Virus record (IMG/VR): IMGVR_UViG_2513020041_000001
Coordinates: 1-7,781 of that record
Length of the DNA: 7,781 nucleotides
DNA from: a virus
Lineage: Monodnaviria > Loebvirae > Hofneiviricota > Faserviricetes > Tubulavirales
Strand: one strand, 5' to 3'
Part shown: piece after piece, positions 2,311 to 7,781 of the stretch
How the letters are laid out: each line of letters begins with the position of its first letter
Numbering within the stretch: position 1 is the first letter of the stretch
Position numbers and translations under genes: made by a program
The notes under the pieces: model-generated
What the model saw: only the letters and a program-made list of their open reading frames with translations
What the model was told of the DNA's origin: nothing
Databases searched by the model: none

Positions 2311-3459
2311 ATGGAACATAGAGCCATCCTTGGTTTACTTGTTGGCGGTTTGTGGTGCGTTCTGGATTCTTTTTCGCAGCTAGCTTCTGCGGCAGTTGAA
2401 ATTAACGTTGTACCTTTAGCAAATGGTACCTATGGCAAAGTTGTTGGCATTACAAATATTTCGCCATCAGGAAGCGCTACCGCCGTTGTTCAAGCTAAAG
2501 ATAAATTCGGTAATCTGGTTAATCGCTCTAGGACGCTTACCGCTAATCCGGCCAAATATGGCGCTTGGGCGCGTACTGCTATGCGCAGGATTCCCGCCGT
2601 TCAAATTGCCTTAGCTGCTGCTGCTGTTGCTGCTGGTTATTTGGTTACTCAAACTACTGATGAGTTTGGACAGGTAGGTTACGATATTTATAAACCCGGC
2701 TCTTCTTTGCCCGGGCTTGATGTTGAATGTCCTACTAACTCTGTATCTGTGCCTAATCCATCTGGTGTTGGCAACGTTCAGGCTTTTATCCCTACACCTT
2801 GCTATAACACTCGTTATTCAAACTACAGAGAATATTGGACTACTGAGCCATCTGCCGAACTGCAAGTGTGGGCTGGCTCAAATAGCCCTAATGTAGTCAC
2901 TCGTTGGCAATCTACATCTGTATCAATTCCACCCACACAGAAGCCTACGTATATTTATAAGCGCGGCATTAGCGCATCAAATCCTGAGAATAAACCTACT
3001 GTTCAGCGTGTTCCTGCTACAGATAGTGATTTAACTACTTGGGGTTTTCAGTCCCCTGACTCTGTTCAAGAAGCACCTGGGAAATTTCCAGATGTTTGGA
3101 ATCCCCTCCCGTGGGAAGAAACCGCTTCTGATGATGAGGTTGTTAACCCTCCGACTCAGCCCGGAGAAAGCACAGAAGATCCTGATTACGACCCCTGCGA
3201 AGGAGATTGTGCTGATTCTTCCGACCTCGATCATTCGGTTTTAGACCTCTCTTCATATCTCAAATGGGGGGAGGGCTGGATGCCTAGGCAGTGTCCCGCA
3301 CCGGTGCTTATTTACCAGTTCAACAACACGCCGGATGGGCAAGGTTGGTTCGATTTCTCTTACATATGCAGCGTTATGACTGATTTTGTATCCCCGTTCA
3401 TGCGAATTGCTGGCTTGTTCTTTTTCGTCCGCATTGTTGTAGGAGGTATGCGTGAATAG
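2311..3459 (+). CDS. Minor coat / adsorption protein (pIII-like), about 382 aa
   Basis: First gene after the coat terminator. N-terminal signal-like hydrophobic segment (MEHRAILGLLVGGLWCVLDSFSQLASA), an acidic Pro/Asp/Glu-rich linker (EETASDDEVVNPPTQPGESTEDPDYDP), Cys pairs and a C-terminal hydrophobic anchor (FMRIAGLFFFVRIVVGG). The ORF-track start at 2275 is a TTG inside the terminator T-run; ATG 2311 is preferred, but the start is uncertain. Confidence 0.6.
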   Translation: MEHRAILGLLVGGLWCVLDSFSQLASAAVEINVVPLANGTYGKVVGITNISPSGSATAVVQAKDKFGNLVNRSRTLTANPAKYGAWARTAMRRIPAVQIALAAAAVAAGYLVTQTTDEFGQVGYDIYKPGSSLPGLDVECPTNSVSVPNPSGVGNVQAFIPTPCYNTRYSNYREYWTTEPSAELQVWAGSNSPNVVTRWQSTSVSIPPTQKPTYIYKRGISASNPENKPTVQRVPATDSDLTTWGFQSPDSVQEAPGKFPDVWNPLPWEETASDDEVVNPPTQPGESTEDPDYDPCEGDCADSSDLDHSVLDLSSYLKWGEGWMPRQCPAPVLIYQFNNTPDGQGWFDFSYICSVMTDFVSPFMRIAGLFFFVRIVVGGMRE

Positions 3460-3739
3460 CTTGCTTAAGATTTTTGGCGTTGAATCAATCCGACACCTGG
3501 TCATCAAGACAATTTCCAGTCTCGGTATTGGGGTGATGAGCTATCAGGGACTTAATATTTTGCTTGGTATGATCACTGATCAAGTCATGCAAAACTTTAA
3601 CTCTTTGCCTGTGTCTGTTCTTTCCATCATGGGACTTGGCGGTCTCGATCACTTTATCAATATTGTTCTTTCAGCTTATTCGGCCCGCTTTGCCATGGCA
3701 TCCATTAAGAAATTTAGAATGATGGGCGCTGCTACATGA
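3452..3739 (+). CDS. Minor coat / membrane protein (pVI-like), 95 aa
   Basis: GTG start at 3452 with strong RBS aggagg (3441-3446), overlapping the pIII stop. The product is highly hydrophobic with multiple predicted TM segments; size and position (between pIII and pI) match gVI. Confidence 0.55.
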   Translation: MNSLLKIFGVESIRHLVIKTISSLGIGVMSYQGLNILLGMITDQVMQNFNSLPVSVLSIMGLGGLDHFINIVLSAYSARFAMASIKKFRMMGAAT

Positions 3740-4638
3740 TTCATTTAATTACCGGCGCACCTGGAACGGGAAAATCTCTGCTTGCTGTAGAGATTATTTT
3801 GGATAATTCATTATCTGAAAATCCGCGGCCTATTTTTTCCAACATCAACGGTTTGGACTTTGAGAAGCTGCGCTGCTTTCCTCTTGATAATCCTGAGGAG
3901 TGGCATACCTATCCAGTTGGTTCGCTGCTGGTAATTGATGAATGCCAACGCTATTTCCCACCTCGACCGAACGGGAGCAAGGTTCCGCAGAACATTGCAG
4001 AATTTGAAACCCATAGACACCATGGCCTTGACATCATTCTGTTAACTCAACATCCAACGTTTATTGATGCCAATATCAGAAAGCTTGTTGATCGTCATCA
4101 GCATGGGTTTCGTCCTTTTGGTAAAAAACGTCGGACTCTTCTGGAGTGGACAGGTTGCAATGACAATCCTGAGCCTGCGAAGAATGAATCTAATTCCTTG
4201 CAGAAGCGTAAGCCTTTTGATCCAAAGCTTTTTCAATATTACAAAAGTTCATCTCAGCATACTGATAAGGACCGTACGCCTTGGGCTAAAGTTCTTTTTC
4301 CTTTTGTTATGTTGGTTTTGGTTGTAGTTGCTTTCGGATTTGCATTTTATCGCTTAAGTCCGTCAAAGCCTGAATCGGTTAATTCTAAATTTGATAATTC
4401 AGTTAAAACGGTTGATAAACAGGCAGTCATTCCTACTGCTTCTTATGTAGGTTTTTTCCGTTCTGACAATGGCTTGCCTGCAACAGTGCTTGTTAAGGAC
4501 GGTTCAAATGGTTTCTACCGCGTTGATTATGATTCTTGGAATGTTGCCGGACCTCAGGTGAGCTTTTTTAAGGCAGATTCAACAACGCCCGTGCTTCGGG
4601 TTTCTTCATTAATTTTGGCAAAACTTATACAGGAGTAG
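3736..4638 (+). CDS. Zonula occludens toxin-like assembly ATPase (pI/Zot family), 300 aa
   Basis: ATG 3736 overlaps the upstream stop (ATGA). N-terminal Walker A GAPGTGKS, Walker B-like LLVIDECQ, an internal TM helix (VLFPFVMLVLVVVAFGFAFY) and a C-terminal periplasmic domain, which is the Zot/pI architecture. Confidence 0.8.
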   Translation: MIHLITGAPGTGKSLLAVEIILDNSLSENPRPIFSNINGLDFEKLRCFPLDNPEEWHTYPVGSLLVIDECQRYFPPRPNGSKVPQNIAEFETHRHHGLDIILLTQHPTFIDANIRKLVDRHQHGFRPFGKKRRTLLEWTGCNDNPEPAKNESNSLQKRKPFDPKLFQYYKSSSQHTDKDRTPWAKVLFPFVMLVLVVVAFGFAFYRLSPSKPESVNSKFDNSVKTVDKQAVIPTASYVGFFRSDNGLPATVLVKDGSNGFYRVDYDSWNVAGPQVSFFKADSTTPVLRVSSLILAKLIQE

Positions 4639-4681
4639 ACGGGGGAGGCGGGCGCTTGCGCACGACGCGCACGTCTACTCC
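4632..4681. promoter_or_regulatory. GC-rich nested inverted repeat spanning the Zot stop codon, upstream of the secretin gene
   Basis: Perfect 10-bp inverted repeat ggagtagacg (4632-4641) / cgtctactcc (4672-4681) enclosing an inner hairpin tgcgc (4657-4661) / gcgca (4667-4671). No T-run follows on either strand, so it is not a canonical intrinsic terminator. Confidence 0.4.
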
Positions 4682-4696
4682 AACCTGCTGACATTT

Positions 4697-5932
4697 ATGA
4701 AAAAACTGATCGCATTCACGTTTTTGATACTGTCTGGATTAGCTCACGCTGAAAACCTGACGCTTTCCTATGATCAAGTGCCCGTCACTCAGCTCCTAGT
4801 CGAAACCTACCGTAATCGACTTGAGAAATCATATGTCATTGACCCCAGCGTTGTTTCCAACAACAGTCTTGTTTCTATTAATGTTCGCGATCTTCCAATT
4901 GAGAGATTGGAATCTACTGTTGATAGCATCCTTAAAACTGCTGGTATCAATAAGGTAGTTGGTTCCGATGGGCTCATTCTTTTCAGCGCTCGCTCATATG
5001 ATTATGCAAACTCTCTCCCTCCCGTTCCAGCTTCTGTTGCTTCTCCTGGTATGGCATCGCTAGGCGCTGATCTTCCACCGGATATCCCTCTTCAAAATGG
5101 GAGTATTCCGGATAACTTCACCATTTTTCTTGCTCATAATCGGCCAACTTCTTTTTTACAGCCAATTGCCAATAAATTGCTTGGTACCAATTACGAACCT
5201 TCCGACCAGGTGTTTTTGTCGGGGGATGCCAAGCAGGTTGAAAAAGTGCGGTTCATCCTGGAGCAGCTCGACACCGCTCCGAATGAAATCATGGCTCAGG
5301 CTGTTGTTCTCGAGTTCTCAACCCAGCGTGTGAAAGGGTCCAGTTTTGAGATGGCAATCTCTGCTTTGTCCGGCCACCTTAAAATCGGTGTTGATTCCTT
5401 GCTCCCTGCCGGTGGGAATTTCATCAAGTGGTCTTCCACGGATCTGACTGCCGTCCTTTCTGCCGTATCCGGTGATTCTCGTTTTCATGTTGTTTCGACT
5501 CCAACGCTGCGCGTTGTTAGTGGTGGTACTGGTCGCCTGTTGGTTGGTCAGGAAGTGCCTACCCTGTCGTCTTCGTCTCTCGATAATTCAGGCAATGCGG
5601 TGCAGTCGATTGAGTACCGATCCGCAGGTGTGATCATGGAGCTGAAGCCCACCATTCTCCGTAATCGTATTGACCTGGAGCTGAATCAACAGATTTCCGA
5701 TTTCGCTCAAAACAATCTTTCTGGCATCGATTCTCCGACGCTGACTAAGCGTGAGTTGACCACCAAAATTTCGGCCCAGCCGGGGGAGCTGATTGTGCTT
5801 GGCGGGCTCGATCAGACGAAAAAAACAGATCAGAGCCGAGGCCTGTCGTTCCTTCCGTCCTTCATGGGCGGTAGCTCTTCAACTGACGCAGATACCCAGA
5901 TCCTGCTGGTTTTGCAGGTAACGAAAATATAG
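4697..5932 (+). CDS. Secretin (pIV/GspD-like outer-membrane export channel), 411 aa
   Basis: N-terminal signal peptide MKKLIAFTFLILSGLAHA. The C-terminal half carries secretin-domain signatures (VVSTPTLRVVSGGTGRLLVGQEVP, EYRSAGVIMELKPTI, GELIVLGGLDQTKKTDQSRGLSFLPSFMG, TQILLVLQVTKI) matching the conserved pattern of phage pIV and T2SS GspD. Confidence 0.8.
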   Translation: MKKLIAFTFLILSGLAHAENLTLSYDQVPVTQLLVETYRNRLEKSYVIDPSVVSNNSLVSINVRDLPIERLESTVDSILKTAGINKVVGSDGLILFSARSYDYANSLPPVPASVASPGMASLGADLPPDIPLQNGSIPDNFTIFLAHNRPTSFLQPIANKLLGTNYEPSDQVFLSGDAKQVEKVRFILEQLDTAPNEIMAQAVVLEFSTQRVKGSSFEMAISALSGHLKIGVDSLLPAGGNFIKWSSTDLTAVLSAVSGDSRFHVVSTPTLRVVSGGTGRLLVGQEVPTLSSSSLDNSGNAVQSIEYRSAGVIMELKPTILRNRIDLELNQQISDFAQNNLSGIDSPTLTKRELTTKISAQPGELIVLGGLDQTKKTDQSRGLSFLPSFMGGSSSTDADTQILLVLQVTKI

Positions 5933-5988: not shown

Positions 5989-6159
5989 ATGGCAAATCAA
6001 TCCGCATCATCCGAAAAAATGCTTAACGTGAAGGTTCCCGAGGATCTCAAGCAGTCTTTTACGCTGGCTGTTGGGGCTCAAGATCAGACCGTTTCCCATG
6101 TCATCCGCGACTTCATGCGCAAATATGTCGCCCAACATGGTCAGGGGAAGCTGCTGTGA
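5989..6159 (+). CDS. Ribbon-helix-helix DNA-binding protein, 56 aa (absent from the ORF track)
   Basis: ATG 5989 with near-consensus SD aaggagg 8 nt upstream, stop TGA 6157-6159. Translation MANQSASSEKMLNVKVPEDLKQSFTLAVGAQDQTVSHVIRDFMRKYVAQHGQGKLL shows a beta-strand (LNVKV), helix A (PEDLKQSFTLAVGA) and helix B (QTVSHVIRDFMRKYV), the RHH fold pattern. Confidence 0.6.
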   Translation: MANQSASSEKMLNVKVPEDLKQSFTLAVGAQDQTVSHVIRDFMRKYVAQHGQGKLL

Positions 6160-6323
6160 ATATACTTCCGGTCACCCCTGCTTCTGCCGTGGCAAGCGCT
6201 GTCACGTGCCCTTCGTTTTCCCTTGACCCGTCCGTGGTCGTCCTCGCCCTTTTTCTGCCCTTTGTCCTTGTAGGGGCTTACTACCTTTTCCGGCTCGCCA
6301 AGGCTGATCTTCGTGGATTGTAA
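6156..6323 (+). CDS. Small single-pass membrane protein, 55 aa (absent from the ORF track)
   Basis: GTG 6156 overlaps the RHH stop (GTGA), with SD-like gggaag (6145-6150) 5 nt upstream. Translation MNILPVTPASAVASAVTCPSFSLDPSVVVLALFLPFVLVGAYYLFRLAKADLRGL has one hydrophobic helix followed by a basic C-terminus. Stop TAA 6321-6323 is followed directly by a hairpin. Confidence 0.45.
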   Translation: MNILPVTPASAVASAVTCPSFSLDPSVVVLALFLPFVLVGAYYLFRLAKADLRGL

Positions 6324-6325
6324 AG

Positions 6326-6374
6326 CCGGTTCTAGACGCCTGAATGGCTTCATCTTTCAGGTGGCTAGAACCGG
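6326..6374. promoter_or_regulatory. Hairpin: 10-bp perfect inverted repeat with 29-nt loop at the start of the intergenic region
   Basis: ccggttctag (6326-6335) / ctagaaccgg (6365-6374). It begins 3 nt after the stop of the small membrane-protein ORF. Confidence 0.5.
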
Positions 6375-6382
6375 AATCGATC

Positions 6383-6423
6383 TTTCTGTAGACCAAATTT
6401 CGTAGACGTACTTTTTCGTAGAC
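6383..6423 (+). repeat. Three iteron-like direct repeats, TTTC(T)GTAGAC
   Basis: tttctgtagac (6383-6393), tttcgtagac (6398-6407), tttcgtagac (6414-6423), spaced about 14-16 bp apart in the same orientation, upstream of rep. Confidence 0.55.
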
Positions 6424-6447: not shown

Positions 6448-6512
6448 CTTGACACTCGTGAAGCCCCTTTCCCGGCAAGGCGCGGAGCTTCACAACGCAG
6501 GGATATTCTAGC

Positions 6513-7781
6513 ATGACTCCAACCAGTTCCGATCTGGTCAGAAATGCCGCTGAGGGCTCAGGCGGCGCAGCCGCCCTAGGTAGTATTGCGAAATGTTCTT
6601 CCCCCCCCCCTCCGAAGGCAATGAGGGCCCAAAGATACCAAGCTCTTTCTCAGGCTCGGATCTGGTTAAAACCCTTGGCTGTCAAGGATCCCACCAAGCC
6701 TTACGGGTGGAAATTGCACCGCACGCAAGACTGCCGCTATAAGCGGATCGGCATCGGCGTCACCGTGCATAAAGACATCAAGCATCAGACCGCTTTTTAC
6801 GGCGATGTAGCCACCTGTGGCTCCGTGTGGGCTTGTACCGTGTGCTCGGCAAAAATTCAGACTCGTCGACGTCCAGAGGTACAGCAGCTGGTCGATTGGG
6901 CTTACGAGAACGACTATCAGGTCACCATGATTACGTTCACGTTCCCGCATCTGGCATTTGATCGCCTGAAGGAACTGCTCGATGGCCAGAAACGCGCCTT
7001 TGAGATCCTCCGCGGCGGTAGCCCATGGGTGAAGTTCAAGCAGCGTCACGGCCTTATCGGCTTTGTGCGCTCTCTGGAGGTCACTCACGGCGATAACGGC
7101 TGGCATCCTCACACCCATGAGCTTTGGATCACCAAGGGGCTCACAGCCACGAATATGGCCACTTTCGAGAGCGGTATCCGCAAGCGGTGGCGGACTTCCT
7201 GCATCCAAGCTGGTTTGCTCGATGAAACCTCGAAGGCGCAACTGTTCGCGTTCGATCTGCACTCGGTCGATTTTCAGTTTCAGGTGTCCACCTCTGACTA
7301 CCTCGTCAAGATGGATAACGCGCGCAAATGGGGTGTCGATGCTGAGATGACGGCTCAAGCGTCAAAGGTTGGTGGTGATCGCGTCACGAAGACCATTCAC
7401 CCCCATGAATTCCTGATGCGTCGCGCACCTGGTGATGATGCCCGCTACCGCGAATACGTAACGGGCATGCATGGGAAAAGCCAGCTGTTCTGGTCTCAGC
7501 GCCTAAAAGACGCCTGCGGCGTAGAGCATGTGACTGACGAAGAGATTGCCAAGGAACAAACCGAAAAAGCGGATCTGCTAGCTCACCTGACCGACAGTCA
7601 ATGGCGTGTCGTTCGTGGAAACGATGCCCTTGCTGAAGTGCTCGATGCTGCCGAGCTTGGTGGCTGGCCTGCTATCCGCTCCCTGCTGAAATCGCTTGGC
7701 TGCGAGATTCTCGAGACGGATTGTCATGATCCATTTTTCGAGGTCAATCGTGTTCTTTTCGCTCCAGACGAGCAGGTCTAG
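6513..7781 (+). CDS. Rolling-circle replication initiator (second, identical copy of 1-1269)
   Basis: Identical 422-aa translation to the ORF at 1-1269, with the same HUH motifs. ATG 6513 has no obvious SD upstream (gggatattctagc), which adds to the doubt about the true start (alternative Met at 6621). Confidence 0.8.
   Translation: MTPTSSDLVRNAAEGSGGAAALGSIAKCSSPPPPKAMRAQRYQALSQARIWLKPLAVKDPTKPYGWKLHRTQDCRYKRIGIGVTVHKDIKHQTAFYGDVATCGSVWACTVCSAKIQTRRRPEVQQLVDWAYENDYQVTMITFTFPHLAFDRLKELLDGQKRAFEILRGGSPWVKFKQRHGLIGFVRSLEVTHGDNGWHPHTHELWITKGLTATNMATFESGIRKRWRTSCIQAGLLDETSKAQLFAFDLHSVDFQFQVSTSDYLVKMDNARKWGVDAEMTAQASKVGGDRVTKTIHPHEFLMRRAPGDDARYREYVTGMHGKSQLFWSQRLKDACGVEHVTDEEIAKEQTEKADLLAHLTDSQWRVVRGNDALAEVLDAAELGGWPAIRSLLKSLGCEILETDCHDPFFEVNRVLFAPDEQV
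6513..7781. repeat. Direct repeat copy 2 (identical to 1-1269)
   Basis: Exact duplication of window positions 1-1269, extending to the window end. Confidence 0.95.

Follow-up and report, generated by a model that had tools for sequence, protein, structure and literature searches.

The window analysed here is a 7,781-nt stretch (IMG/VR record IMGVR_UViG_2513020041_000001, Tubulavirales), and the element in question is a hairpin that lies across the stop codon of its gene for the Zot/pI assembly ATPase. The window holds an inovirus genome, circular and complete at 6,512 bp, together with an exact 1,269-bp terminal overlap (1–1269 = 6513–7781), because of which the rep gene appears twice. Between Zot and the secretin gene, whose ATG is at 4697, lies a gap of 58 nt (4639–4696). 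By direct reading, the arms GGAGTAGACG (4632–4641) and CGTCTACTCC (4672–4681) form an inverted repeat that is perfect over 10 bp and encloses 30 nt, and the Zot stop TAG (4636–4638) falls within the 5' arm. This agrees with a preliminary description of the locus, which had placed such a repeat across the Zot stop, in the 58-nt gap before the secretin gene. The "inner 5-bp hairpin" of that description has to be redrawn: the inner palindrome GCGC-TT-GCGC is really a CTTG tetraloop on a stem of 3 bp (GCG/CGC), next to a G.A mismatch and a partly paired 6-bp middle stem. The features of the locus are as follows.

3736–4638, plus strand: Zot/pI assembly ATPase gene (Pfam Zot, E=2e-31); stop codon inside the hairpin; linked to the hairpin in every family member.
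4626–4687, plus strand: whole conserved hairpin element (covariance model R1, 74.9 bits, E=4e-18; the sole match in the window, plus strand only).
4632–4641, plus strand: outer stem, 5' arm GGAGTAGACG, with the Zot TAG at 4636–4638; both sides of this helix change in 8 of 10 pairs across relatives.
4642–4644, plus strand: internal loop, 5' side, GGG; the G-run is kept across the family (alignments).
4645–4650, plus strand: middle stem, 5' arm GAGGCG; 4 of 6 positions pair here and 5–8 bp in relatives; both sides change in 4 of 6 pairs.
4651–4662, plus strand: apex, consisting of G (of the G.A mismatch), GCG stem, CTTG loop, CGC stem and A; core of the motif GGGCGCTTGCGCAC.
4663–4668, plus strand: middle stem, 3' arm CGACGC (fold and covariation).
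4669–4671, plus strand: internal loop, 3' side, GCA; ACA in most relatives (alignments).
4672–4681, plus strand: outer stem, 3' arm CGTCTACTCC (direct reading and fold).
4682–4696, plus strand: 15-nt spacer from the hairpin to the secretin ATG, without a Shine-Dalgarno (SD) sequence.
4697–5932, plus strand: secretin (pIV-like) gene (Pfam Secretin, E=2e-22); 3' of the hairpin in this sub-clade only and outside the conserved element.

The nearly invariant apex motif GGGCGCTTGCGCAC occupies 14 nt in the window (4650–4663), and helix 2 comprises 9 pairs when the middle stem is counted together with the apex stem. In a sliding scan of both strands, the Zot-stop hairpin was the most stable single-stranded DNA (ssDNA) hairpin of the genome (−20 kcal/mol, z=−5.6, with none of 200 shuffles as stable). 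The corresponding RNA fold has −26.4 kcal/mol and z=−2.4, and the G+C content of the element is 72%, against 49.5% for the genome. The inverted repeat is not rare on its own, as 0.24 perfect 10-bp repeats with a 3–40 nt spacer are expected per genome (P of at least one, 0.17); three were seen.

The element was not listed in a terminator scan of the window, which did list sites at 2249–2269 and elsewhere, and no T-run follows it (3' flank AACCTGCTGAC), in keeping with the earlier statement that it is not a standard terminator. Rfam gave no match at E<=1 for the whole window on both strands, and no promoter-like site was predicted by scan in the Zot-secretin gap. The secretin start, described before as having no recognisable SD, indeed has the weakest anti-SD duplex among the window genes (+0.7 kcal/mol, compared with about −11.5 for the pVI and ribbon-helix-helix (RHH) genes). 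We considered whether folding brings an SD close to this start and rejected the idea, as the AGGAG of the 5' arm is engaged in pairing and most relatives do not have it.

Relatives were gathered by a Zot protein search, which gave close and distant ones whose contigs were fetched, and three further scans added about 190 Zot-encoding loci (loci and contigs carry L numbers here). A single-protein Zot search of viral contigs returned no relatives; the alignment-based search found them. Carriers of the hairpin are phages from Pseudomonas, Thalassolituus, Bacterioplanoides, Rheinheimera and metagenomes, with Zot proteins only 43–86% identical. Relatives whose Zot is 86%, 78% or 59% identical (the last group includes the Pseudomonas lundensis prophages) all keep a Zot-secretin gap of 58–59 nt that holds the hairpin. 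Their hairpins are 96%, 98% and 84% identical to the window's, respectively, and the flanking Zot and secretin genes are 63–79% identical. In the more distant relatives (Zot 43–60%; Thalassolituus, Bacterioplanoides, Rheinheimera and metagenomes) a hairpin with the same apex GGGCGCTTGCGCAC extends from the Zot stop; the sequence of its stems is quite different from that in the window, yet the arms are mutually complementary. Most members carry the stop inside the 5' arm, and in L204 and L205 it lies a few nucleotides 5' of the hairpin.

Covariation was tested on a MAFFT alignment of 16 distinct members with a three-tier structure of 19 pairs. Overall, 85.8% of the cells pair, compared with 65% in column shuffles and 25–50% when the partners were slid by 1–3 columns. 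Both sides change in 12/19 pairs of the structure, and there are 69 double-change cells where 25 are expected. The covariation score was 0.514 against at most 0.124 in the slid controls, a value reached by 0/500 shuffles. RNAalifold, run independently, returned the same three-tier architecture with compensatory changes at 10/16 pairs, and a model-guided alignment reproduced the MAFFT statistics. Since the paired cells contain 13 G.T wobbles and only 3 A.C, it is the plus strand that is under selection, not a double-stranded palindrome. A chance origin is ruled out by the way the element is conserved and covaries in relatives. The Zot-stop hairpin is therefore real and non-random, and it is one copy of a previously undescribed family of structured elements, present once per genome, on the virion (coding) strand, at the Zot stop.

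Covariance model R1, built from the 16-member alignment, found exactly one match per genome (E=1e-13 to 1e-18), and each of these lay at the Zot stop and on the coding strand. The model had no match in distant long-Zot inoviruses or in Pseudomonas phage PMBT54. As for specificity, an exact 15-mer of the apex occurs in 80 viral contigs, and the full model matched only one of these (L248); the other 79 lack the full fold, although L262 among them has a related long hairpin. L248 is a 9.9-kb viral contig in which only a C-terminal remnant of Zot and an intact hairpin are left (7050–7549). Around these lie tailed-phage-like genes (DUF2460, DUF7210) as well as an AHH nuclease/Imm11 pair, and the contig may represent the junction of a prophage in decay. 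A stem-only pattern, GGAGTAGACG-N20-40-CGTCTACTCC, matched one 43-kb viral contig, which was set aside as a chance match in apparently coding sequence with an unrelated loop. The strand bias of CTTG-capped hairpins (16 vs 4) is not independent evidence, because family members dominate the count.

While the hairpin stays with the assembly genes, the replication genes around it are exchanged. The carriers encode Rep_1 (the window and L006), Phage_CRI/pII (L003, L008, L204) or Phage_GPA (L205, L208), and four Rep families (Rep_1, CRI, GPA and Rep_trans) are seen when carriers of the apex are counted with those of the hairpin. The second-strongest hairpin of the window (6326–6374) behaves differently. 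It has a 19-bp imperfect stem (−19 kcal/mol) and sits just 5' of rep and the GTAGAC repeats. Only L006 (whose Rep_1 gene is 95% identical) conserves it at 100% over 60 nt, and phages with a CRI-type Rep lack it. As this hairpin tracks Rep_1 and the Zot-stop hairpin does not, we assign the former to the replication module, where it probably belongs to the replication origin or to the region that controls it, and the latter to the assembly module.

It had also been proposed that the arms share GTAGACG with the iterons at 6383–6423. The heptamer is present in the arms (a single occurrence, by symmetry); in the repeats (about 6386–6423) it is found in only one of the three, and the shared core is GTAGAC. 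The caution attached to that proposal, that the match may be chance, was well placed: the GTAGACG arm is kept in L008, which has a different Rep family, and L006, with a Rep 95% identical and the same arm, lacks the GTAGAC repeats (window about 6386–6423 vs L006 6325–6355). We therefore read the match as chance and rejected a link between the hairpin and Rep iterons.

The genes 3' of the hairpin vary as well. In the Pseudomonas sub-clade this gene is a secretin; elsewhere it is an HNH endonuclease (L016, L017, L248) or a KorB-like gene (L208), while L204 and L207 have small ORFs there and L205 has a minus-strand gene. Most family members have no secretin gene downstream, and this was established for at least a dozen distinct relatives, including L016–L018, L204, L205, L207 and L208. 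Conversely, Zot and secretin abut without a hairpin between them in the secretin-encoding L203 and L206. A secretin-specific function is therefore not the reason for the conservation of the hairpin. The attenuator or processing site limiting secretin expression that the preliminary description had suggested is thus not the primary role, and an effect on secretin expression in the window phage would be secondary; its alternative suggestion, a protein-binding site, we accept as plausible.

The HNH_5-family endonuclease genes encode about 130 aa and lie 45–100 nt 3' of the hairpin (L016 8065–8463, L017 8017–8403, L248 7647–8039), and L051 has a 132-aa ORF in the matching position (1085–1483). Between the main hairpin and this gene, L016, L017 and L248 carry a small second hairpin (TTTCG-CNAG-CGAAA), which is also present in L050 and L205. 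In L008/L009, the P. lundensis prophage is followed (9627–14513) by a Phage_integrase gene, a gene with a weak Phage_integrase match and a 704-aa ORF without a Pfam match, all on one strand; these three consecutive genes are a possible recombinase trio. Contig L010 contains two tandem copies of the phage genome.

Variants of the hairpin in which the apex is present as well were found further afield. L053 and L054 have a hairpin at the Zot stop with the apex GCGCA-CTTG-TGCGC. In L206, where the secretin gene overlaps Zot, a strong hairpin lies right after the secretin stop (6074–6135), and a separate multi-tier, CTTG-capped hairpin follows at a distance of about 100 nt, within the intergenic region behind secretin (6213–6278). 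The same genome has a canonical CTTGATA beside a small hairpin just 3' of rep (1474), 4.7 kb from the CTTG-capped one. L262 is a distant G+C-rich inovirus with a Zot that is 38% identical and a Rep_trans-type Rep; it carries a stem of about 14 bp with the identical apex CG-G-GCG-CTTG-CGC-A-CG about 40 nt 5' of rep (986–1041). These variants suggest that the apex is a recognition module, and they argue against a plus-strand origin and against an RNA role specific to Zot or secretin.

The other annotated genes of the window, all assigned with Pfam, are the following.

1–1269: Rep_1-type rolling-circle Rep (pC194-type).
within 1445–1861: ssDNA-binding protein.
within 1871–2230: coat B protein.
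3452–3739: DUF2523/pVI-like protein.
5989–6159: RHH protein.

By megablast of the genome, the nearest named phage is PMBT54, which has only the Rep/ssDNA-binding/RHH side in common, with a short match in the ssDNA-binding gene; its Zot-secretin gap is 5 bp and lacks the hairpin element. The genome is mosaic, with a Rep closest to those of L006 (95%) and PMBT54 (72%), and with pVI and Zot closest to L003, which has a CRI/pII-type Rep. Directly after the major coat gene, at 2249–2269, there is a canonical terminator-like hairpin with T8, analogous to the strong terminator after gene VIII of Ff phages. Similar GGGGCGC-loop-GCGCCCC hairpins with a T-run also lie 3' of the coat gene in L016, L049, L204 and L208. 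A small terminator-like hairpin (GCCCG-TGCTT-CGGGT, 4587–4601) is found inside the 3' end of Zot, 30 nt 5' of the main hairpin, and the TTCTTC that follows it is kept in relatives. The third perfect 10-bp inverted repeat of the genome (CGTGTTTTCG / CGAAAACACG, 31-nt spacer, 1521–1571) lies between rep and the ssDNA-binding gene and overlaps a promoter-like site (1496–1523). A minus-strand ORF of 46 aa (4554–4694) was rejected as a gene, because stop codons interrupt it in L003 and L006.

Of the functions considered, we tentatively favour a cis-acting plus-strand packaging (morphogenetic) signal of the assembly module for the Zot-stop hairpin, a reading to which we give somewhat less than even confidence. 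If the mechanism is modelled on Ff phages, the phage ssDNA-binding protein would coat newly made plus-strand DNA and leave the very stable, G+C-rich hairpin bare. At the inner membrane, the Zot/pI complex and the minor coat proteins of the leading tip could then recognise the exposed hairpin, with its conserved apex (the G.A mismatch and GCG-CTTG-CGC) and G-rich internal loop. Such recognition would start filament assembly and set how the DNA is oriented in the virion. The packaging hairpin of Ff stays free of pV; once the complex has docked on pI/pXI, this hairpin causes the pVII/pIX tip to take the place of pV (PMC10175506). This hand-over at pI/pXI offers a reason for the tight linkage of the hairpin to gene I.

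The computed results that favour a packaging signal are the fold, the covariation, the plus-strand specificity, the single copy, the fixed position at the Zot stop and the co-inheritance with assembly genes. That the hairpin is the most stable of the genome in ssDNA fits as well, because a packaging signal must stay folded while the ssDNA-binding protein coats the rest. In relatives without a secretin, the last assembly gene is the one whose stop carries the hairpin; in the window, the secretin gene comes after it. Action as DNA rather than RNA, and in packaging rather than priming, is an inference.

Several observations weigh against this interpretation. The computed results do not discriminate between action as DNA and action as RNA. 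In the window, the hairpin has gene I before it and gene IV behind it, and so does not follow the last assembly gene. An apex of 14 nt that is nearly invariant while the assembly proteins fall to 43% identity could be easier to reconcile with a conserved host factor as the recognising partner, as in priming, than with small coat proteins, which evolve fast. In L206, the place directly behind the secretin stop is taken by a different hairpin; the CTTG-capped one follows about 100 nt later, where the complementary-strand origin would be if positions corresponded strictly to those in Ff. There is also no sequence homology to the Ff signal: the best match of model R1 on M13 scored 9 bits (E about 1) and lay elsewhere in that genome.

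Two other roles come next after packaging, each of which we regard as unlikely. One is a complementary (minus)-strand origin, at which the host would prime synthesis on the incoming plus strand (through a PriA-type primosome site, primase or RNA polymerase) and so convert ssDNA into the replicative form. In favour of this, the fold is plus-strand-specific and highly stable, and dependence on a host factor would explain both why the apex is invariant across genera and why Rep modules are freely exchanged. With its compact form, about 55 nt and position between structural genes, the hairpin recalls the site of primosome assembly in the F-G spacer of phiX174, and the CTTG-capped hairpin of L206 and L262 shares the main intergenic region with other origin-like hairpins close by. 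However, the alignments show no conserved −35/−10-like boxes in the duplex parts of what is a single hairpin, the scan shows no promoter-like site, and there is no conserved CTG in the single-stranded 3' flank; neither an RNA-polymerase origin of the Ff type nor a primase origin of the G4 type is therefore supported. Known minus origins, of the Ff and plasmid single-strand origin (sso) types, are larger and have several hairpins, and priming leaves the strict attachment to the Zot stop codon unexplained. The other role, which generalises the attenuator idea of the preliminary description, is that of an RNA element in the polycistronic transcript, with the CUUG-capped stem-loop as a barrier to 3' exonucleases, a processing site or a leaky attenuator that sets the ratio of Zot to downstream mRNA (in the window, that of the SD-less secretin gene). 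In its favour, the hairpin sits between ORFs on the sense strand and folds as RNA (−26.4 kcal/mol), G.U-compatible wobbles are tolerated, the secretin start lacks an SD and its gap a predicted promoter-like site, and the loop matches G(CUUG)C, a recognised stable RNA tetraloop. Against it, no U-tract is present in the window or in most relatives, and in most members, whose stop codon falls within the 5' arm, every ribosome that terminates has to open the hairpin. The genes downstream are unrelated among members, the RNA z-score (−2.4) is much weaker than the DNA z-score (−5.6), the conserved unpaired bases (GGG/ACA, G.A and CTTG) point to specific recognition rather than mere stability, and L262 has the same apex in an intergenic position 5' of rep.

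The remaining explanations are very improbable even when a plus-strand origin, an operator, a recombination site and a recoding element are taken together. CTTG|ATA is the nick site in phiX174 and pC194, so the CTTG of the loop might be the site at which a rolling-circle Rep nicks a plus-strand (double-strand) origin. The window does encode a Rep_1 of the pC194 type, and the origin stem-loop of phiLf contains a CTTG recognition sequence (bioRxiv 10.1101/2023.12.30.573655). Yet we hold this to be most improbable: nearly identical hairpins (93–98%) occur with three unrelated Rep families, the loop CTTG is followed by CGC and not ATA, the canonical CTTGATA of L206 is near rep and 4.7 kb from its CTTG-capped hairpin, and the Rep_1 module is tracked by the hairpin at 6326–6374 instead. 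A CTTGACA at 6448 was considered separately as a Rep_1 nick site and rejected, as it is not conserved in L006. We also think it very unlikely that the element is a double-stranded palindromic operator, a recombination site (attP- or dif-like), a REP/MITE-like repeat, or a recoding stimulator for read-through of Zot. The palindrome, a GTAG-like 5' foot and a middle stem 6 nt after the stop codon would suit one or another of these. The asymmetry of G.T and A.C argues against an operator. The element is intact and internal in the P. lundensis prophages and in the tandem copy (L008–L010), so it is not the crossover point, and it has no dif-like core. A single model match per locus, with 15-kb chromosomal flanks included, speaks against a repeat. 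Read-through is excluded as a general role by the tandem stops of L016 (TGA TAG), and the extension peptide is not conserved. No Rfam family matched the element.

More broadly, it is possible, though we would not expect it on balance, that the CTTG-capped three-tier hairpin welded to the Zot stop is the sequence-specific determinant of assembly specificity (the packaging signal) for short-Zot inoviruses that form a large, uncharacterised clade in Pseudomonas and marine Gammaproteobacteria, and also the boundary behind which cargo genes (secretin, HNH endonuclease, KorB-like and toxin genes) are swapped. If so, the CTTG-capped hairpins of L053/L054, L206, L262 and L057/L060 would form a wider class of packaging signals, from which the plasmids and satellites that a given inovirus mobilises could be predicted. 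Packaging signals have been defined experimentally only for Ff/IKe and, lately, Xanthomonas phages, and those of other filamentous phages are largely unknown (bioRxiv 10.1101/2023.12.30.573655). A candidate with covariation, a consensus and a fixed position would make phagemid/helper systems for Pseudomonas and marine inoviruses possible, would help to find, by sequence, the satellites and plasmids that hitch-hike in these virions, and would make it possible to ask if the signal is read by the Zot ATPase. For annotation, the hairpin explains the recurrent "gap" of 58–59 nt 3' of Zot. Were it a priming site or an RNA element instead, it would still be a well-defined new structured motif.

Among known systems, the PriA site of phiX174 and single-strand initiation signals are alike in that a viral-strand hairpin of about 55 nt lies between structural genes, independent of the type of the phage Rep. 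There is no known sequence relation to the phiX174 site, and nothing in that system accounts for the linkage to the Zot stop; we know of no sequence consensus for PriA-type primosome assembly sites. Intercistronic stabiliser or attenuator hairpins of the REP type, as in malE-malF, share a stable G+C-rich stem-loop between cistrons without a U-tract. Unlike them, the Zot-stop hairpin is single-copy and phage-specific, holds the stop codon in its stem, conserves unpaired bases and is followed by varying genes.

The closest likeness is to the Ff/IKe signal (hairpin A), also a long, imperfect, G+C-rich plus-strand hairpin that occurs once per genome and has a G-rich ascending limb. The match extends to stability and to linkage with gene I, with which the Zot-stop hairpin is co-inherited across three Rep families. 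In M13, gene IV (the last assembly gene) ends at 5500, and the packaging-signal region folds with −29.7 kcal/mol (z=−3.4). The outer stem of the M13 hairpin starts at the second base of the gene IV TAG; in both systems the outer stem thus begins inside the stop codon of an assembly gene, here the Zot TAG. The Ff and IKe signals, hairpins of 54–57 nt, are placed between the origin and gIV and carry CGGGT...GGTG on their ascending limb, which is G-rich (bioRxiv 10.1101/2023.12.30.573655). The Zot-stop hairpin is near this core in size, at about 50 nt, and shorter than the full M13 fold of 78 nt. It differs in lying before the secretin gene, where the Ff signal follows gene IV, and in the sequence conservation of its apex and internal loop, as Ff tolerates changes in the loop (bioRxiv 10.1101/2023.12.30.573655). 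In Xanthomonas phages, the packaging signal is a short G+C-rich hairpin with essential stem bases and loop pyrimidines, mostly inside gII (bioRxiv 10.1101/2023.12.30.573655). Its representative in phiLf-UK, SL4, resembles the Zot-stop hairpin as a G+C-rich DNA hairpin with conserved stem bases, and the loop pyrimidines of SL4 are functionally important. The Xanthomonas signal is otherwise unlike the present one, being 20–26 nt long with a stem of 7–8 bp, located mostly inside a replication gene, reportedly independent of orientation, and conforming to GGX(A/-)CCG(C/T)G as its consensus. It shows that the position and sequence of packaging signals differ between inovirus lineages (bioRxiv 10.1101/2023.12.30.573655).

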